A DNA stretch of 64,000 nt from an uncultured Saprospiraceae bacterium. Its GTDB lineage: Bacteria > Bacteroidota > Bacteroidia > Chitinophagales > Saprospiraceae. Where the stretch lies: assembly GCA_938002665.1 (NCBI GenBank), contig CALLAE010000012.1, positions 28,616-92,615 on the forward strand, read 5' to 3'. Positions 33,214 to 42,809 of the stretch are shown piece after piece. Below the pieces are notes generated by a model. The model did not search any database, had not been told where the DNA came from, and saw nothing but the letters and a program-made list of their open reading frames with translations. Within the stretch, counting starts at the first letter, position 1, and every line of letters starts with the position of its first letter. The translations under genes were made by a program, and so were the position numbers.

Positions 33214-33646
33214 CTTCCAGTATAAAACTGACTAGATTCCAATCCTCCGTGTTGATAAGTAATCGACCAGTGAAGGTTAGCACCTCATCCATCTCAAAGC
33301 GCTTTTTGGGTGGCTGATTAAGACGGACTTCAAGAATGGTTTCCAGCCCTGCACCCCCACAAAAGAAGCAATTAGCGTTGGGGAATTTAGATAGGACGAT
33401 CATGTCTTCTTCCATAACTGGAATATGATAGCCTTTAATGGTGATGACTCTATTGTTCAGAGCTACAATTTCTGGATCATCTTCTAGGAGGCTGGCGTAG
33501 GCTCCGTATTCTTCGAGATAGACATCTTTGAAATTGGCATCCTTAAAAAGATTCCAGCTCTGTTCTGCTTGTGCCAACAAAGAAGAGTCTGTAACTATGC
33601 ATAATAATGCTAAGGTGAAAAGTGTTAAACACAAGTTACGCATCAT
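33191..33646 (-). CDS. hypothetical secreted protein
   Basis: 151 aa with a signal peptide and the motif ITIKGYHIPV...NCFFCGGAG, loosely reminiscent of DUF3299-type proteins. It overlaps both neighbours, suggesting operon coupling. Confidence 0.5.
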   Translation of the reverse strand: MMRNLCLTLFTLALLCIVTDSSLLAQAEQSWNLFKDANFKDVYLEEYGAYASLLEDDPEIVALNNRVITIKGYHIPVMEEDMIVLSKFPNANCFFCGGAGLETILEVRLNQPPKKRFEMDEVLTFTGRLLINTEDWNLVSFILEDAELIAR

Positions 33647-34247
33647 TCAGTTTGGTTCCTGAAGTGAATAGTTTAGCTAAAAACAGTGCTACTTCATTGT
33701 TGTCAAATTGTGAATTGACTGACATGTTATTGAGGAAGAGCTCAGCCGGCGTACCTACGAGCACATAGCTGAGAAGTTGCCGATCTCTTTCGTTTTTGAA
33801 GTTGATCCTATCATCTAATTTTGATATGTCTACTTGTAAGTCTTTTATGATTCGTCTTATCGAGTCACTCTTGTATGAAGCACTTCTAATGTATGCTTGG
33901 TTTTTTTTGTGAAAGGAAAGCATTTCGTTACTTGAGGCAAAATCGAAGTAAGCTTTTATCGAGGCATGAAATAAGTCAAAAACATTGTCTTGTTTATTCC
34001 TAGCTTTTTTGGTAATCATTCTGATCTCTTCATTGACTTCTTCTACGACAGTATTGAAGATATCTCGGACATCTGAAAAGTAATTATAGAAAGTTCCTCT
34101 ACCTATATTACAGGCCTTAACAAGATCTGCAACAGTTGTTTTTTCAAAACCATGCTCAGCAAAAAGTTTACGTGCTTCCAACAAGAGCTGGCTTCTAATA
34201 GCCTCCTTGTTACGTTCTCTTTTTCCTATGTCTAGGTTGCTCTCCAT
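33636..34247 (-). CDS. TetR/AcrR family transcriptional regulator
   Basis: 203 aa with N-terminal HTH FAEHGFEKTTVADLVKACNIGRGTFYNYF. It is the last regulatory gene of the minus-strand fad cluster. Confidence 0.9.
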   Translation of the reverse strand: MESNLDIGKRERNKEAIRSQLLLEARKLFAEHGFEKTTVADLVKACNIGRGTFYNYFSDVRDIFNTVVEEVNEEIRMITKKARNKQDNVFDLFHASIKAYFDFASSNEMLSFHKKNQAYIRSASYKSDSIRRIIKDLQVDISKLDDRINFKNERDRQLLSYVLVGTPAELFLNNMSVNSQFDNNEVALFLAKLFTSGTKLNDA

Positions 34248-34278: not shown

Positions 34279-35451
34279 TTAATTCAATCTCTCAAAAATT
34301 CCTGCAATACCTTGTCCACCTCCTACACAGGCTGTTACCATTCCATAGCGCTGATCACGTCTTCTCATTTCATTGAGTAATTGTACAGTGAGCTTAGCTC
34401 CTGTACAACCAAGTGGGTGGCCTAGGGCAATAGCGCCACCGTTTACATTTACAGTTGCAGGGTCTAGTCCTACTGTTTTTATGACGGCAAGAGCTTGAGT
34501 AGCAAAGGCCTCATTCAATTCTGTCTGTTGTATATCTTCTAACTTAAGTCCAGCCATTTTTAGTGCTTTAGGAATAGCAACGCAAGGACCTATACCCATG
34601 TATAAAGGATCTACACCTCCTACAACGCAAGTGACGAGCCTTGCTATGGGCTCTAGCTTAAGTTTTTTTACCATTTCCTCACTCATAACCAAGGTAAAGG
34701 CAGCACCATCTGAAGTCTGGGAAGAGTTTCCTGCAGTGACGACTCCACCGTTTTTGAAGACAGCTCTTAATCGGCCTAGCCCTTCCATGCTTGTTCCTCT
34801 TCGAAGTCCTTCATCGACTTCTACGATATGAGAACTTTCGACTCTTTTACCATCTTTTACAAACACCTCTTCTACTGTCACAGGAACGATTTCATCTTTA
34901 AATAAGCCTGTATCTATAGCGTTAGCAGCTCTTTTGTGAGACTCTACAGAAAAGGCATCTGCTTGCTCCCTGTTTACCTCGTACTTTACAGCTACGGCCT
35001 CGGCAGTATTGCCCATTCCGACGTGGTAGTTGATATTCTCTAAGTTGGCTTTGTAGCTAGGTGCTAACTTGTATCCAGTCATAGGTACAGAGCTCATACT
35101 TTCTGCTCCTCCTGCGATGTACATGTGCCCATAGCCCGCTTTAATTTTTCCTACAGCCATTGCTATTGCCTCTAATCCTGATGCACAAAATCTATTGACA
35201 GTAACGCCTGGAACTTCCACTCCTAAAGCCCTAGCAGAAATCATTCTGCCCACTTGCATGCCTTGTTCACCTTCAGGTATCGCACAGCCTACAATGACAT
35301 CATCTATGAGGGTAGGGTCTACTTCAGGGACAGTTTTCATCATATGCTTGATAACATCTACTGCTAGGTCATCAGAACGATAATTTTTGAATCCTCCCTT
35401 ATGTGCTTTCCCTACTGCTGATCTAAATCCTTTTACTAAGTATGCTTCCAT
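34279..35451 (-). CDS. fadA: acetyl-CoA C-acyltransferase (3-ketoacyl-CoA thiolase)
   Basis: 390 aa with active-site region [12 protein letters not shown] and C-terminal [17 protein letters not shown]...CVGGGQG. Confidence 0.95.
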
Positions 35452-35494
35452 GTAGTTTGTTGTTTCTTTTTATTAATTAATTAGATCGCTTTGC

Positions 35495-35510
35495 TTTTTA
35501 GATTTTTAGA
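35495..35510. repeat. inverted 16-nt copy (TTTTTAGATTTTTAGA) of the TCTAAAAA repeat
   Basis: It is the exact reverse complement of TCTAAAAATCTAAAAA at about 35556-35571 in array A. The two can pair as a long-range hairpin in the fadA-proximal spacer. Confidence 0.7.
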
Positions 35511-35541
35511 ACGCTACGCTTTCAGATTACAAGAATTCTTC

Positions 35542-35694
35542 TCTAAAATCTAAAATCTAAAAATCTAAAAATCTAAAAATCTAAAAGTCTAAAAGTCTAA
35601 AAGTCTAAAGTCTAAAAGTCTAAAAGTCTCAAGTCTAAAAAATCTCAAGTCTAAAAAATCTAAAAGTCTAAAAGTCTAAAGTCTAAAATCTAAC
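35542..35694. repeat. microsatellite array A: about 20 tandem 7-9-nt units (TCTAAAA / TCTAAAAG / TCTAAAAA, two TCTCAAG)
   Basis: I read it directly from the sequence. Its last unit overlaps the stop codon (35690-35692) of the four-helix-bundle gene. Confidence 0.95.
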
Positions 35695-36049
35695 CCTTCT
35701 TAATCTTGATCCGAAATACATTTATCATTTTTTGTAACTCAATTATCTCTGATAAAATTTCATCTGCAGTCCACTGCTTAATATATCCAAGCTCCTTGCA
35801 AATTATTACTTGGGTATCCAGTTCAGTAAGTGATCCCATTGCAATATTTAAAAAATGTACAAGTTGCTTAGGAGTATTACGTCCACAACCTTCAGCTATG
35901 TTTGAAGGCACAGAAACCGAACACCTTCTAATTTGACTAGTCAGTCCAAAAACTTCTTCTTTAGGAAATGAGCCAGACACTTTATAAATAAGTAAACTGA
36001 GTTGAATTGCCCTTTGCCAAATCTTCAGTTCCTTAAAATTGTGATTCAT
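35690..36049 (-). CDS. four-helix-bundle protein (23S rRNA intervening-sequence protein / Avd-like family)
   Basis: 119 aa with FKELKIWQRAIQL...SQIRRCSVSVPSNIAEGCGR...FLNIAMGSLTELDTQ, the characteristic pattern of this family. Confidence 0.85.
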   Translation of the reverse strand: MNHNFKELKIWQRAIQLSLLIYKVSGSFPKEEVFGLTSQIRRCSVSVPSNIAEGCGRNTPKQLVHFLNIAMGSLTELDTQVIICKELGYIKQWTADEILSEIIELQKMINVFRIKIKKG

Positions 36050-36050
36050 T

Positions 36051-36177
36051 TCTACAAGTCTAAAGTCAAAGTCAAAGTCTAAAAATGTAAAATCTAAAAG
36101 TCTAAGGTCTAAAAGTCTAAAGTCTAAAGTCTAAAAAGTCTAAAAGTCTAAAAATCTAAAGTCTAAAAAGTCTAAAA
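36051..36177. repeat. microsatellite array B: about 17 tandem units of the same TCTAAA(A)G family, same orientation as array A
   Basis: It fills the whole gap between the fadB-like stop (36180) and the four-helix-bundle ATG (36049). Confidence 0.95.
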
Positions 36178-36179
36178 CC

Positions 36180-38582
36180 CTAATTCCTCAAAGGCTTATT
36201 ATTCATCAACATATATTGAATCCTATCTAGCGTTTTTTGATTTCCTAGTAGAGATAAAAATGCTTCCCTCTCTAGATCTAATAGATATTGCTCGCTTACT
36301 TTTTGTTTGCTTGTTAAGTCTCCTCCACACATTACAAAGGCCACTTTCTTAGCTATCTCAACATCATAATCAGACATAAATAAACCTAGTCTAAATTCAT
36401 TTATAGCAGTATATAAAGCCGATAAGCCTGTTCTTCCTAATACCTCCACATCTTCTCTCGCCACTGGTGCTACAAAATCTTTAGCCATCTCTATTACTTT
36501 ATGTTTAGCTAGGCTGATATTCTTGGGAGTCCTAGGAGTTACTTCATCTTTCGTGGGCAGTAAAAGATTGTAATCATAGCCTTCCCATCCAGAGGTCGCT
36601 ACGCTAGCCATCGCGATGGGCTTAAAGTGATCTAAGAGGGTAGGAATCTGCACATCACCTTCAAAGTAAGCATCAGAAGCTCTCAAGGCCATTTCCTTAG
36701 TACCTCCACCACCTGGTAACAGTCCCACTCCAACTTCTACAAGACCTATATAAGATTCAGCTGCACAGACAGCGCCATTGGCATGCATTGTCATTTCACA
36801 TCCTCCTCCAAAAGTGTAGCCTTGGGTAGCGACTACAACTGGTACTTTAGAAGTTCTCATGTGCATGCATAACTGCTGGAACTGATTGACCATTTCATCT
36901 AACTTCTTAAAATCTTTCTGCATGGCAACCATGCCTACATTCATAAGATTAGCTCCGACAGTAAAGTGTTCAGCATTATTCCCTATCACTACTCCCTGGA
37001 GTCCATCGTTTTCAGCTTTGGAAATTGCTTCAAATATGCCATTTCCTATTCCTTCACCTATAGCATTGCTCTTAGACTGGAATTCTACACATAGTACGCC
37101 ACCTCCGATATCATGTACGGTACATTCTGAATTTTTGATAATTGGAGTTTTATCCCTTAGTGTATCTAAGATCACAAAACCTAAAGTGCTAGGGACAGTT
37201 AAGTATGCATTAGTTCTCAGGTCATAATACTTTTTTTGTCCTTCTTCTATCTTATAGAAGCTAGTTTGCCCTTTTGCTATCATATCCTCGACCCATTGAG
37301 GAATAGATTCTCCACATTCTTTAGCAATAGCTATACCTTTTTCTATGCCTATCTTGTCCCAGTACTCAAATGGGCCATAAGACCACTTGTAACCAGCCTT
37401 CATAGCATCATCTATACTGAATATTTCGTCAGATATTTCTGGAATTCTATTGGCTGTATAGCTGAACAATGCAGCAAAATATTCTTTGAGAAATTTATTT
37501 CCTTTCTCTTCTCCGTCTATTAGGGTCTGCAATCTTTTATCAAATAACTCTATTTTTCTGGCTGCACCTATGGAAGCTAACCTTGGCTTTATCGCTTTTT
37601 CGTACTCAAGAGTTTCTAGATTTAGAGCTAGATAGATTGTTTTTCCTTTCTCATCTTTTTCTTTGGTTCTCTCGTAGAATCCTTTTTTAGTTTTCTTACC
37701 GAGGAATTTATTCTCTACCAGAAAATCTACATACTTAGGATTTCCAGCTGCCTTTACTTTTTCAAAGTATGGATCACCAGGAGTATTGTTTGCCACAAAC
37801 TTGGCTACTTTGTCTCCTGTGTCTATACCTACTAAGTCTTGTAATTTGAAGGTAGCCGTTTTTGGCCTACCGATAAGCGGACCTGTTAGAGCATCTACTT
37901 CTTCTATTTTGAACTTATACTTATCTGTGAGCTCATACATTTTAGCACCAGACATGACGCCTATTCTATTCGCTATAAATGCTGGAGTATCTTTACACAG
38001 TACTGTGTCCTTTCCTAAAAAGCTATCTCCGTAGTCCATAAAGAAATCGATGACTCCCGGATCAGTTCCTTTGTGCGGTATGATTTCTAATAAAGACATG
38101 TATCTAGGGGGGTTGAAAAAGTGGGTACCACAGAAGTGCTTTTTAAAGTTTTCACTTCGTCCTTCTACTAGCATTCCTATTGGAATACTGGAAGTGTTTG
38201 AAGTAATAAGAGCACCTTCTTTAGCATATTTTTCTACCTTCTCGAAGATTTGCTTCTTGATATCAAGTCGTTCTATGACTACTTCTATTATCCAATCTGC
38301 TTCCCCTATTTTGTCAAAGTCATCTGTAAAATTCCCAGTCTTTATTCTTGAGGCAAATTTCTTAGTATACAATGATGCTGGCTTAGATTTTATGGCAGCT
38401 TTCAAGGCACCATTTACTATACTATTTCGAGCAACTTTGTTGTCTTTATCCTTCTCTGCTAAGTCAAATGGGACGATGTCTAGTAAAAGAACATCCAATC
38501 CTATATTGGCTAAGTGACAAGCAATACCTGAGCCCATCACTCCAGAACCTAAGACTGCGACTTTTTGTAACCGATGTTTCAT
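36180..38582 (-). CDS. fused 3-hydroxyacyl-CoA dehydrogenase / enoyl-CoA hydratase (FadB/FadJ-like, HAD domain N-terminal)
   Basis: 800 aa with N-terminal VAVLGSGVMGSGIA NAD-binding HAD domains and a C-terminal crotonase fold (GYTFGGGCEM). Confidence 0.9.
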   Translation of the reverse strand: MKHRLQKVAVLGSGVMGSGIACHLANIGLDVLLLDIVPFDLAEKDKDNKVARNSIVNGALKAAIKSKPASLYTKKFASRIKTGNFTDDFDKIGEADWIIEVVIERLDIKKQIFEKVEKYAKEGALITSNTSSIPIGMLVEGRSENFKKHFCGTHFFNPPRYMSLLEIIPHKGTDPGVIDFFMDYGDSFLGKDTVLCKDTPAFIANRIGVMSGAKMYELTDKYKFKIEEVDALTGPLIGRPKTATFKLQDLVGIDTGDKVAKFVANNTPGDPYFEKVKAAGNPKYVDFLVENKFLGKKTKKGFYERTKEKDEKGKTIYLALNLETLEYEKAIKPRLASIGAARKIELFDKRLQTLIDGEEKGNKFLKEYFAALFSYTANRIPEISDEIFSIDDAMKAGYKWSYGPFEYWDKIGIEKGIAIAKECGESIPQWVEDMIAKGQTSFYKIEEGQKKYYDLRTNAYLTVPSTLGFVILDTLRDKTPIIKNSECTVHDIGGGVLCVEFQSKSNAIGEGIGNGIFEAISKAENDGLQGVVIGNNAEHFTVGANLMNVGMVAMQKDFKKLDEMVNQFQQLCMHMRTSKVPVVVATQGYTFGGGCEMTMHANGAVCAAESYIGLVEVGVGLLPGGGGTKEMALRASDAYFEGDVQIPTLLDHFKPIAMASVATSGWEGYDYNLLLPTKDEVTPRTPKNISLAKHKVIEMAKDFVAPVAREDVEVLGRTGLSALYTAINEFRLGLFMSDYDVEIAKKVAFVMCGGDLTSKQKVSEQYLLDLEREAFLSLLGNQKTLDRIQYMLMNNKPLRN

Positions 38583-40900: not shown

Positions 40901-41517
40901 TTCGAAAGACAAAGGGTGCCAAATCGTCCACTGTCTTGTCGACCTTGTGGAGACGACTTCAAAACTTGGAAGTTAGTAGTTGGTTAAGTTGAAGTTTTCT
41001 GCGCTTCACTTTGTTGCGGTCGAAAAGACAGAAGTTGAGGATTCTATTACTACCACTTGTTTTGTCGACCTTGTGGAGACAACTTCAAAACTAGGAAGGT
41101 AGTGGTTGGTTAAGTTGAAGTTTTCTCCGCTTCACTTCGTTGCGGTCGAAAAGACAAAGGATTTAGGTTTCTTTCAGTGCCACTTGTTTTGTCGACCTTT
41201 TGGAGACGACTTCCAAATTAGAAAAGACAGTGGTTGTTTAGGTTGAAGTTTTCTCCGCTTCACTTTGTTACGGTCGAAAGGACAAAATAGTCTAGGTTTC
41301 TTTCGGTGCCACTTGTTTTGTCGACCTTGTGGAGACGACTTCAAAACTAGGAAGGTAGTAGTTGGTTAAGTTGTAGTTTTCTTCGCTGCACTTCGTTACG
41401 GTCGAAAAGACAGAAGTTGAGGATTCTATTACTACCACTTGTCTTGTCGACCTTGTGGAGACAACTTCAAAACTAGAAAGGTAGATTTTGCTTCACTATA
41501 TTTTGGTCGAGAAGTCA
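40901..41517. repeat. tandem hairpin-unit array, left block (partial right arm plus units 1-5)
   Basis: Units lie at about 40929-41030, 41054-41156, 41181-41284, 41310-41412 and 41436-41517 (the last internally deleted). Consensus: CACTTGTCTTGTCGACCTTGTGGAGACAACTTCAAAACTAGGAAGGTAGTGGTTGGTTAAGTTGAAGTTTTCTCCGCTTCACTTCGTTGCGGTCGAAAAGACA. Linkers are 22-25 nt. Confidence 0.95.
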
Positions 41518-41533
41518 AGAAAATAGTTTTAGA

Positions 41534-41848
41534 CTATTCTTCTACATGAATAAACTCAGGATTTAGGGATAGCAGTTTAGGGTTTGTGCTTTTGATGAGA
41601 GTATTTTTCTTTGATCTATTCCATTTTTTTAGCTGTTTTTCTCTTGCAATAGCATCATTCACATATTGGTAGATTTCGTAATAGACCAATTCATAACAGT
41701 AGTACCTGCCTGAAAAGTATTTTACATTTCCTCTGTTTTCAAAATGTTCTTTTAACCTTCTGGAAAGATTTTTTGTAACACCTATGTACAGAGTAGTTCT
41801 AGCTGGATTGGAAAGTATATAGGTATAGTAGGTATGGTCCTTTTTCAT
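41534..41848 (-). CDS. GIY-YIG nuclease family protein (small stand-alone URI-domain type)
   Basis: 104 aa with YYTYIL...LYIGVT...RRLKEH...AIAREKQLKKW, which matches the GIY / YIG / Arg / Glu core order of the fold. It is embedded in the tandem repeat array. Confidence 0.85.
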   Translation of the reverse strand: MKKDHTYYTYILSNPARTTLYIGVTKNLSRRLKEHFENRGNVKYFSGRYYCYELVYYEIYQYVNDAIAREKQLKKWNRSKKNTLIKSTNPKLLSLNPEFIHVEE

Positions 41849-41904
41849 TTTTAAAGCTATTATCTCTGCTAAGTTAATGAAGACTTATATGAAAAGGTTA
41901 TGTA

Positions 41905-42809
41905 TACTGTTTGTCTTGTCGACTTGTGGAGACAACTTCCAAAAAAAATGAGTAGACAGTGGTTGGTTAGGTTGAAGTTTTCTCCGCTTCACTTTGTTGC
42001 GGTCGAAAGGACAAAAAGTCTTGGTTTCTTTCAGTATCACTTGTCTTGTCGACCTTGTGGAGACGACTTCCAAAGTAGAAAAGACAGTGATTGTTTAGGT
42101 TTCTCCGCTTCACTTTGTTACGGTCGAAAAGACAGAAGTTGAGGATTCTATTACTACCACTTGTCTTGTCGACCTTGTGGAGACAACTTCCAAACTAGGA
42201 AGGTAGTGGTTGGTTAAGTTGAAGTTTTCTCCGCTTCACTTTGTTACGGTAGAAAAGACAAAAGTCTTGGTTTCTTACAGTGCAACTTGTCTTGTCGACC
42301 TTGTGGAGACAACTTCCAAACTAGGAGGTAGTGATTGGTTAGGTTGAAGTTTTCTCCGCTTCAGTTCGTTGCGGTCGAAAGGATAAAGGATTTAGGTTTC
42401 TTTCAGTGCCACTTGTCTTGTCGACCTTGTGGAGACAACTTCAAAACTAGGAAGGTAGTGGTTGGTTAAGTTGAAGTTTTCTCCGCTTCACTTCGTTGCG
42501 GTGAAAGGACAAAAAGTCTTGGTTTATTTCAGTGCCACTTGTTTTGTCGACCTTTTGGAGACGACTTCCAAATTAGAAAAGACAGTGATTGTTTAGGTTG
42601 AAGTTTTCTCCGCTTCACTTCGTTACGGTCGAAAGGACAAAGGGTTCCAAAAATTCGCCCACTCTTTTTATCGACCTTGTGGAGACAACTTCAAAAAAAA
42701 TTGAAAAGACAATGATTGGTTAGGTTGAAGTTTTTTCTGCTTCACTTCGTTTTGGTCGAAAAGACAAAGGGTTCTATTTACGCTTCAGTTTGTTTTGATA
42801 CTAAAGACA
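41905..42809. repeat. tandem hairpin-unit array, right block (units 6-12 plus partial right arm)
   Basis: Units lie at about 41905-42013, 42038-42134, 42158-42260, 42283-42385, 42410-42511, 42536-42639 and 42660-42766, with a partial right arm at 42781-42809. Orientation is the same as the left block. Confidence 0.95.

Follow-up and report, generated by a model that had tools for sequence, protein, structure and literature searches.

We analysed a 64-kb stretch of DNA (the window, to whose positions all coordinates refer unless a locus is named) from a short-read marine metagenome assembly, in which a gene for a small four-helix-bundle (4HB) protein lies between the fadB-like and thiolase genes of a fad operon, enclosed by two long arrays of short tandem repeats (Table 1). 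The closest named relatives of the fadB-like protein come from metagenome-assembled genomes of Saprospiraceae (Bacteroidota). A preliminary description of this DNA had pointed to a fadB-thiolase pair split by a 4HB gene on the same strand, and every element was found where it had been placed; its premise that the two genes normally adjoin also holds, many relatives having gaps of 4–12 nt at this junction. The insert is, in our judgement, probably a cassette of the intervening sequence (IVS) type, of the same kind as the 23S rRNA IVSs that carry an open reading frame (ORF), filling the space from stop to start codon in a fadB-fadA operon. As an example of its kind, the window copy is unusually expanded and in part degenerate.

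The 4HB gene and its flanking arrays

The 4HB gene occurs once in the window. Its product scores above the cut-offs of PF05635 (E 3.8e-40, 136.8 bits, cut-off 33.8), TIGR02436 (129.9 bits, cut-off 24) and NF008911 (141.4 bits, cut-off 137) and below those of the Avd-specific models, in keeping with its earlier assignment to the 23S-IVS/Avd family of four-helix bundles. All 21 columns that are invariant in a 28-sequence alignment are kept, and R42-x3-S46-x3-N50-x2-E53 corresponds to the R-x3-S-x3-N-x2-E family motif quoted in PMC3936711. The only solved relative found by sequence is PDB 2GSC (XCC0516, five chains; E 7.9e-22, residues 6-94), a homologue described as a toroidal homopentamer (PMC4990558), and this homology suggests that the window protein may likewise be a pentameric toroid. 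An exact-sequence look-up of the window protein and a PADLOC search for defence systems returned no match, and 50,697 phage records searched for 4HB homologues gave zero matches.

Could the gene be the accessory (Avd) of a diversity-generating retroelement (DGR), the repeats being leftovers of its template and variable repeats (TR/VR)? The bAvd protein has the same fold, a four-helix bundle assembled as a pentameric barrel that binds nucleic acid and reverse transcriptase (RT). It is a distant homologue, a relationship noted in PMC10053308, and the window protein gives weak matches to PF22296 (bAvd, 20.9 bits) and NF033474 (DivGenRetAVD, 22.1 bits). These scores are, however, far under the respective cut-offs of 40 and 80, the genomic setting differs, no RT is found among the neighbours (fadB, thiolase, TetR, MatE, acyl-CoA dehydrogenase, SCP2, GIY-YIG and OsmC), and the repeats at the gene are tandem units of 7–9 nt with no TR/VR pair. 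We regard this reading as barely worth entertaining.

The upstream array, as delimited by Tandem Repeats Finder (TRF; 36051-36177, period 8, 16.9 copies, score 131), starts at the base that follows the fadB TAG, extends to the 4HB ATG and fills the entire gap; the downstream array (period 8, 19.6 copies, score 188) begins inside the TAG stop of the 4HB gene. The earlier counts of about 17 and about 20 units are thus borne out. Overall the unit is (TCTAAAAG)-like. On the coding strand it reads CTTTAGA, CTTTTAGA or CTTTTTAGA (in RNA CUUUAGA, CUUUUAGA or CUUUUUAGA), a heptamer with a variable U-run whose true length is 7–9 nt, with a TRF consensus of 8. The upstream array reads (CUUU(U)(U)AGA)n with a UAG/'NAG' core in every one of its ~17 units, and both long arrays carry UAG in the sense strand (~37 repeats). 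The two flanks are directly similar (score 154, z 50), the highest value among the 86 genes compared below. When up to 2 mismatches are allowed, the window contains 12 copies of the 16-mer TCTAAAAGTCTAAAAG, all of them in this region, against 0.21 expected and none in 100 shuffles; the 64-kb window holds no similar array elsewhere.

The preliminary description also noted a 16-nt inverted copy (35495-35510) lying 31 nt from the nearer array and able to pair with it, and the inverted-repeat search recovers it: it is complementary to units of either array over up to 21 nt at 90% (I3/I4) and over 14 nt at 100% (I11). On the coding strand the segment 35490-35510 reads UCUAAAAAUCUAAAAAGCAAA, two CT-type units complementary to array units. 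It pairs with the distal units of the downstream array, and the resulting local hairpin has a predicted energy of -29.2 kcal/mol (z -2.5).

Long arrays in a short-read metagenome invite the suspicion of an assembly artefact. Contigs of all four runs examined stop inside both arrays, k-mer depth across the arrays (35510-35692 and 36059-36180; runs X1-X4) is 4–35 times the flanking depth, many loose ends run on into unrelated sequence, and low-depth chimeric joints between the two arrays are seen. Yet Logan contigs of the four runs enter the arrays from unique flanks, on all four sides and in independent runs; the contig with the 4HB gene runs from within one array to within the other (35671-36120); and orthologues and many paralogues have arrays at the same places, which leaves the copy numbers alone in doubt. 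An artefact is scarcely credible. We conclude that the window arrays are real, with exact copy numbers that depend on the assembly since the short-read contigs break inside them. Numerous contigs in runs X1-X4 lead from the same repeat into unrelated sequence; given these and the inflated depth, TCTAAAAG-type arrays are abundant elsewhere in this marine community.

Table 1. Features at the fadB-thiolase junction of the window, in the direction of transcription
Feature	Position	Strand	Basis or remark
fadB-like 3-hydroxyacyl-CoA dehydrogenase/enoyl-CoA hydratase (HAD/ECH) fusion, 800 aa	36180..38582	-	Pfam 3HCDH_N, 3HCDH, ECH_1; NCBIfam Staph_FadB-like 577 bits; upstream host gene
fadB-like stop TAG	36182-36180	-	directly adjoins first repeat unit
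fadB-to-4HB gap, 130 nt; probable expanded 5' arm	36050..36179	-	TRF and sequence
4HB gene, 119 aa	35690..36049	-	PF05635 23S_rRNA_IVP / TIGR02436; intact
4HB-to-thiolase gap, 238 nt	35452-35689	-	
Second same-sense array, ~20 units of 7–9 nt	35542..35693	-	TRF
Spacer, 31 nt; loop and inner stem of local 3' hairpin	35511..35541	-	
Putative vestige of canonical 3' arm (inverted copy)	35490..35510	-	inverted repeats I3/I4, I11
A/T-rich leader, cassette to thiolase start codon	35452..35489	-	sequence
Thiolase (fadA-like acetyl-CoA C-acyltransferase), 390 aa	34279..35451	-	Pfam Thiolase_N, Thiolase_C; TIGR01930 428 bits; downstream host gene
TetR gene	33636-34247	-	

Repeat arms across the 4HB family and in a 23S rRNA IVS

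Whether paralogues carry such flanks had been left as a check. We inspected 80 genome loci, picked by similarity of the encoded protein only, from Bacteroidota, Verrucomicrobia/Opitutia, Planctomycetota, Acidobacteriota, Cyanobacteria, Patescibacteria/Peribacteria, Firmicutes (Acutalibacteraceae) and others, with 85 evaluable genes (86 for the test of flank relation). An array of period 6–9 lies within 150 nt upstream in 58/85 (68%) and downstream in 67/85 (79%), with arrays on both sides in 49/85. The control density in the same loci is 0.063 arrays per 150 nt (~6%), so that arrays are enriched 11–13-fold at 4HB genes. Periods of 7, 8 and 9 occur in the ratio 102 : 13 : 3, and the modal array length is 30–31 nt. 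We scored the relation between the two flanks by local alignment against shuffles, shared 6-mers and swapped-partner RNAduplex being confounded by base composition; by this measure the flanks are reverse-complementary (z>4) in 56/86 genes (65%) and direct in 10/86. The median arm is 32 nt long and 86% complementary to its partner, the 5' arm ending 32 nt before the gene and the 3' arm starting 17 nt after the stop codon.

The unit itself varies from locus to locus, even between paralogues that share a contig (L019, L025), yet it is complementary within each gene, and variant units are mirrored in order between the two arms of a locus (e.g. L003, L005). Protein pairs that are at least 60% identical share a unit (≤1 mismatch) in 33% of cases, against 2–3% of distant pairs; arms and gene are therefore co-inherited at short range but diverge fast. 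The nearest long ORF is co-oriented with the 4HB gene in 69/78 cases upstream (88%) and 66/76 downstream (87%), and the stop of the upstream gene precedes the 4HB start by a median of 67 nt. Besides the fad operon, copies are found between sdhA and sdhB, after ffh, and between cas6 and cas4. No other cargo was found between paired heptamer arrays in 363 kb: the 5 further pairs are all empty hairpins. Comparison of the loci shows the canonical cassette, namely a 5' arm of ~30 nt (about five phased T-N-A-G-W heptamers), a leader of ~30 nt, a 4HB ORF of ~115–125 aa and a reverse-complement 3' arm.

The same arrangement is found inside an rRNA gene. A tblastn search of plasmid records gave 31 matches, nearly all in heterocystous cyanobacteria (Nostoc, Calothrix, Anabaena); plasmid AZO_p2 of Azospirillum lipoferum 4B (L175, 13798-15324) carries an unannotated 4HB ORF that interrupts a hairpin loop of a 23S rRNA gene, at ~1206-1218 of the Rfam model (891.9 bits). 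Insertion sites of rRNA IVSs lie in helix 9, 25 or 45 of the 16S/23S rRNA gene, and we tentatively take this point to be the helix-45 site. The 5' arm reads CAGAGGA CGGATGA CAGAGGA CGGAGGA CAGAAAG and the 3' arm CCGTCCT CTGTCTT CTGTCAT CCGTCTT CTGAGTG. The element is a true 23S rRNA IVS built with the arm grammar of the operon cassettes, five phased heptamers per side; operon cassettes and ORF-bearing IVSs thus have protein family, layout and arm substructure in common. Since such flanks are family-wide and arms of the same kind stand on a genuine 23S IVS, the repeats belong to the 4HB gene rather than to this site. The earlier proposal that repeat arrays delimit a cassette is accordingly right as to the flanks and wrong as to their form, the canonical delimiters being inverted arms of ~30 nt and not long direct arrays. 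A layout like that of the window, with two same-sense arrays and one outer inverted arm, occurs in L174 (15 + 10 units), L111, L048 and L033.

A simpler explanation is that the arrays are ordinary slippage-prone simple sequence repeats (SSRs) that stand beside a 4HB gene by coincidence, as a contingency or phase-variation tract or, in another variant, as an unstructured A/U-rich leader that aids translation initiation in a Bacteroidota operon. Unit number does differ between assemblies, a version 7 nt shorter at 36100 being present in three runs, and heptamer SSRs are over-represented in the intergenic DNA of many bacteria with no gene partner (PMC4692102, PMC4679880). Coincidence is nonetheless contradicted by the enrichment beside 4HB genes, which extends over 80 independent loci from many phyla, and by the complementarity of the flanks; orthologues have the same unit type, and the window has no second array of this sort. 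We consider this reading very improbable.

Decayed 4HB genes, truncated or frameshifted and still flanked by arrays, are frequent (L106, L129, L132, L020 and the second copy in L029), a sign that the gene decays recurrently and that its arms outlast it. Solo hairpins or single arrays of phased heptamers without a gene are found in L088-L090, L094, L103, L130, L136 and L137, and further ones in L009 (5810-5931), L051 (692-786) and L062 (1534-1624); several lie at the fadB-thiolase junction itself, also in a distant taxon (CACGAAG/CTTCGTG). Such solo hairpins are likely remnants of decayed cassettes.

Aligned in phase, the heptamers of the 5' arms read T-N-A-G-(T/A)-A-N, with A in 41/46 and G in 39/46; they carry 4.85 bits of information, shuffled units 3.89 +/- 0.09. 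The complemented 3' arms yield the same motif, and AG is found in 85% of the units of 5' arms and in 84% of those of complemented 3' arms. Where AG recurs at exact 7-nt spacing, the longest run is most often 5 (24/85 upstream, 19/85 downstream-antisense), where shuffles give 1–2, and the opposite chirality, CT first, is nearly absent, with CT-phased runs of at least 4 in only 5/85. Both the window unit UUAGAC(U)(U) and the published repeat TAACTGA, the complement of TCAGTTA, fit the T-N-A-G-W core. Together, a conserved AG core, a preferred number of five phased repeats and a solved homologue that forms a pentameric ring make the arms candidate binding sites for the cassette's own 4HB protein. 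We also considered that the units might insulate by placing stop codons in all frames, and rejected the idea, as they are no richer in stops than shuffles (z -0.2 to 1.8).

Own-protein binding could take the form of autoregulation, in which the 4HB pentamer would wrap the single-stranded 5' arm, with its five phased NAG repeats, on the mRNA that encodes it. Wrapping would compete with arm pairing and so set the translation or processing of the cassette and of the downstream host gene, and the ~37 sense-strand UAG repeats of the window would form a sponge or landing pad of large size. A precedent is the trp RNA-binding attenuation protein (TRAP) of Bacillus, whose 11-mer ring binds 11 (G/U)AG repeats, and another is the binding of nucleic acids by bAvd. 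The AG core with its modal five at exact 7-nt spacing, the end of the 5' arm ~32 nt before the start codon, the UAG in both window arrays and the toroidal homopentamer of the solved homologue (2GSC, five chains; PMC4990558) are consistent with such a role. The case is, however, purely inferential, and the likeness to TRAP is a functional analogy only, TRAP having an unrelated fold (a beta-sandwich 11-mer), a repeat spacing of 5–6 nt and proven binding. Moreover, an inverted repeat reads alike on both strands, so that AG chirality is no proof of RNA recognition, and the units diverge fast while the proposed contact residues are invariant, which would leave the AG core alone readable. We think autoregulation of this kind rather unlikely.

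Turnover at the fadB-thiolase junction

We surveyed the junction in thiolase relatives from metagenome contigs (63 loci) and in loci obtained by exact protein look-up. The closest 4HB homologues (61–71% identical) occupy the same junction, and their arms are short, canonical and built from the same type of unit. In L081, L083 and L085 the 5' arms are (TTAGACN)3-5 and the 3' arms, just before the thiolase ATG, (NGTCTAA/TCTAAAA)3-5; those of L085 read (TAGACNT)x5 upstream and (ANGTCTA)x5 downstream. As copies 61–71% identical sit at the same junction in related genomes, the window copy is best read as an old, vertically inherited resident and not as a recent insertion. Because these orthologous copies carry short canonical arms, the long same-sense arrays of the window would be a lineage-specific expansion, and since the inverted copy matches the 3' arms of the three loci in position and sequence type, it is presumably the remnant of a canonical 3' arm.

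Three states of the junction were distinguished: a short gap of 4–38 nt in 12 distinct junctions, a 4HB gene in 13, and a long gap with no intact 4HB gene in 17. Among the long gaps are hairpins of solo heptamer arrays, copies with a frameshift or truncation, and L110, which differs from L111 by an internal deletion of 325 nt in a background of 98.5% identical thiolase DNA. The empty sites that the preliminary description had thought worth seeking do exist; in the closest fadB relative (78% identical, identical gene order) the junction is empty and 30 nt long. Between loci with the gene, 4HB alleles are incongruent with their hosts: in L102 and L105 the thiolases are 96% and the 4HB proteins 52% identical, in the window and L086 85% and 41%, and identity collapses exactly from the fadB stop to the thiolase start. 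The host fadB stop is TAG in 20/30 array- or cassette-filled junctions against 1/12 short ones (L081-L148; Fisher p 0.0014), a bias that fits an overlap of the first repeat unit with the host stop.

Presence and absence, pseudogenes, deletion remnants and non-orthologous alleles together fit a selfish cassette. The suggestion of a mobile or processed cassette thus agrees with the turnover at the junction at large; the window copy itself is no recent insertion, and its RNA forms no stem around the gene.

In a more distant clade (thiolase 55–65% identical) a second 4HB gene stands immediately downstream of the thiolase (L122, 4715-5068; L129, 4808-5161; L133, 4829-5191; L139, 828-1178), and three of these four loci also hold a 4HB gene at the fadB-thiolase junction, the fad operon having been hit repeatedly. 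In L123, L128 and L138 a fadB-thiolase gap of 381 nt contains a different ORF of 72 aa, which has no Pfam family and no repeat arrays; the junction also accepts other small genes.

Processing, mobility and known systems

How might an IVS-type cassette live in a protein-coding operon? Wedged between co-directional host genes, with no obvious promoter or terminator of its own, it is probably transcribed by read-through from the host operon; in 35300-36400 a scan found no intrinsic-terminator-like site at any position and no sigma-70-like promoter on the minus strand, the promoter scan not modelling those of Bacteroidota. Once transcribed, the two arms would pair and enclose the ORF in a stem of ~30 bp. 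The termini of rRNA IVSs form a stem (28 bp in Coxiella) that RNase III cleaves in Coxiella, Salmonella, Leptospira and alphaproteobacteria (PMC4990558); by analogy the cassette stem is probably a substrate of the same enzyme, whose cut would free or insulate the cassette and keep the host messages usable. In the window lineage the 5' arm would have grown by replication slippage to ~17 units of 7–9 nt and a second same-sense array of ~20 units would have arisen behind the 4HB stop codon, with only two units of the canonical 3' arm surviving to close a local hairpin with the nearer array. Processing of the window transcript, if any, would be at this hairpin, just upstream of the thiolase start. 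More speculatively, the pentameric 4HB ring may read five phased NAG units.

Several observations weigh against processing of this kind. The predicted fold of the window RNA (z 0.09 against shuffles) contains the local 3' hairpin only and no enclosing stem, because the long arrays are in direct orientation; being same-sense, the downstream array cannot pair with the 5' arm. The orthologous RNA of L085 forms a terminal arm-arm stem around the ORF (z -4.25), and as the window copy, unlike L085, forms none, IVS-like excision by a stem-specific RNase is unlikely for it in its present form. None of the RNA runs searched holds any window sequence. In a freshwater metatranscriptome contig a related 4HB gene is continuous with its downstream gene; as the contig ends at the repeats are uninformative, this shows only transcription continuous with the downstream gene for a related cassette. 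Array copy numbers in the window depend on the assembly, as noted above, and 26/86 4HB genes show no significant relation between their flanks. Mismatches in the arms bear no RNA-type signature, with 145 G.U against 157 A.C and transitions to transversions at ~1:2; in the absence of a G.U excess there is therefore no sign of RNA-specific selection, and a DNA-level cause of arm symmetry is equally possible. Recent transposition found no support, identical proteins on many contigs (P0104, P0045) having one context each. We know of no catalytic or nucleic-acid-binding activity of 4HB proteins outside DGRs.

The lack of an RNA signature bears on a second possibility, a mobile element acting at the DNA level, whose arms would be terminal inverted repeats with about five oriented heptamer sites each and whose RNA stem would be a by-product; its own pentameric 4HB protein or a host factor would bind the sites to synapse, cut or copy the ends. 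Mobility has been proposed as a role of the IVS ORF by earlier authors (PMC4990558). Patchy presence and incongruent alleles at one junction, arms that travel with the gene, variant units in mirrored order (L003, L005) and arm mismatches free of wobble bias would all follow, as would the fixed chirality of the arms, AG-type units being 5' on either strand as expected of oriented end sites, and the excess of TAG host stops hints at a defined left boundary. Against it, the cassette contains no transposase, no target-site duplication was recognised (the empty sites, of only 4–30 nt, being unalignable), identical copies are never in two contexts, and neither the phage records nor PADLOC or any other functional search gave a match. 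On duplex DNA, heptamer spacing would also turn each successive site by 240 degrees, an awkward geometry for a ring. To our knowledge the 4HB family has no nuclease or recombinase motif. We rate a DNA-level element as a minor possibility and continue to favour the IVS-type cassette.

The nearest known systems are the ORF-bearing 23S IVSs of Leptospira, Coxiella burnetii, Brucella and, with the 'S23p' ORF, the Xanthomonas type (Ralph & McClelland 1993, as reported in PMC4990558). In common with these, the operon cassettes have a PF05635 protein, an ORF enclosed by complementary, stem-forming termini and a sporadic distribution; for IVSs, earlier authors suggested a selfish or mobile nature. The window element differs in its place in a protein-coding operon rather than an rRNA helix (the window has no rRNA gene and a single tRNA, and the element sits between two protein genes), and in arms expanded to ~130–150 nt, with long direct arrays and no enclosing stem.

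Intergenic heptamer repeats form the second related body of work. Mazel et al. reportedly described the cyanobacterial short tandemly repeated repetitive (STRR) heptamers CCCCAGT, TTGGTCA and CAACAGT in 1990. The arrays found here resemble heptamer SSRs in their period of 7, in their intergenic position, often right upstream of start codons and often as convergent (inverted) pairs, and in length changes by 7-nt steps. GGGAATC heptamers form convergent pairs in Xanthomonas (PMC4692102), TAACTGA repeats occur in Beggiatoaceae, Cyanobacteria and Bacteroidetes (PMC4679880), and 4HB genes are common in the taxa that these papers name. Those papers, however, treat the repeats as free-standing and name no associated gene, whereas the arrays here go with one gene family; in addition, window units are 7–9 nt long with a consensus of 8, and GGGAATC lacks the AG core. 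Repetitive extragenic palindromic and bacterial interspersed mosaic elements (REP/BIME) and MITEs (miniature inverted-repeat transposable elements) are likewise small intergenic inverted-repeat elements between co-transcribed genes that form RNA or DNA hairpins, and solo heptamer-array hairpins without a gene do exist (L088-L090, L009, L051). The cassettes differ from them in having no partner of the REP-associated tyrosine transposase (RAYT) or other transposase kind, arms of tandem heptamers instead of a fixed palindrome, and a locus-specific unit.

A gene of the same family, 23S_rRNA_IVP, stands between cmr3 and cmr2 and was read as a possible CRISPR-associated function (Zhang, Doak & Ye 2014, PMC3936711), in a paper that names no repeat flanks. 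Similarly wedged, a 4HB gene lies between cas6 and cas4 on plasmid pPg_01 of Pseudanabaena galeata (L174, 45674-47215), where the order (TTAGCTT)n, loop, (AAAGCTA)x15, gene, (AAAGCCA)x~10 is the mirror image of the window layout with similarly long arrays. This suggests that the reported 'CRISPR-associated' genes are cassette insertions, for which any operon can be the host (fad, sdh, ffh, cas).

Three things were each known already: the protein family, IVSs that bear an ORF between complementary termini, and heptamer SSRs. We found no literature that links 4HB genes to heptamer arrays, nor any on phased-heptamer IVS arms or on the same cassette in protein-coding operons; coverage was incomplete and a prior description is possible, and with that proviso the flanking architecture does seem, as first supposed, to be undescribed. 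Three puzzles have been treated separately: the IVS ORFs, since 1993; the large 4HB family, for which our search gave 39,465 'four helix bundle protein' clusters at 50% identity; and the surplus of heptamer repeats between the genes of cyanobacteria, Xanthomonas, Beggiatoa and Bacteroidota. Sequence comparison suggests that they are facets of one cassette with a defined grammar. We know of no function of the 4HB family outside DGRs, and the grammar makes such a function directly testable. It also gives annotators a simple signature for insertions in fad, sdh, ffh and cas operons that have hitherto been taken as pathway-associated, and it explains the odd arrays of the window as an expansion of pre-existing arms and not a new kind of delimiter. 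A bolder extension, which we regard as doubtful, is that the PF05635 pentamer is the missing protein partner of bacterial heptamer repeats, each ring reading five phased NAG heptamers, with gene and arms forming a self-propagating cassette whose decay leaves solo arrays and hairpins (STRR, TAACTGA) and whose rRNA-resident subset is the rRNA IVSs.

ORFs checked against Pfam from ~31.8 to 44.7 kb comprise MatE, an unassigned 151-aa ORF, TetR, thiolase, fadB, ACAD, SCP2, GIY-YIG, OsmC and a protease. The GIY-YIG nuclease-domain gene (104 aa, 41534-41848, minus strand; PF01541, E 7.8e-17) stands between two blocks (4.4 + 6.8 copies; 40928-42768) of a tandem repeat of 126 bp, each unit of which has an internal inverted repeat. 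This region of ~2 kb sits between the genes for SCP2 and OsmC, direct neighbours in the syntenic relative L169, and is thus a second insert with a small gene and tandem-array flanks, only 5 kb from the 4HB cassette.

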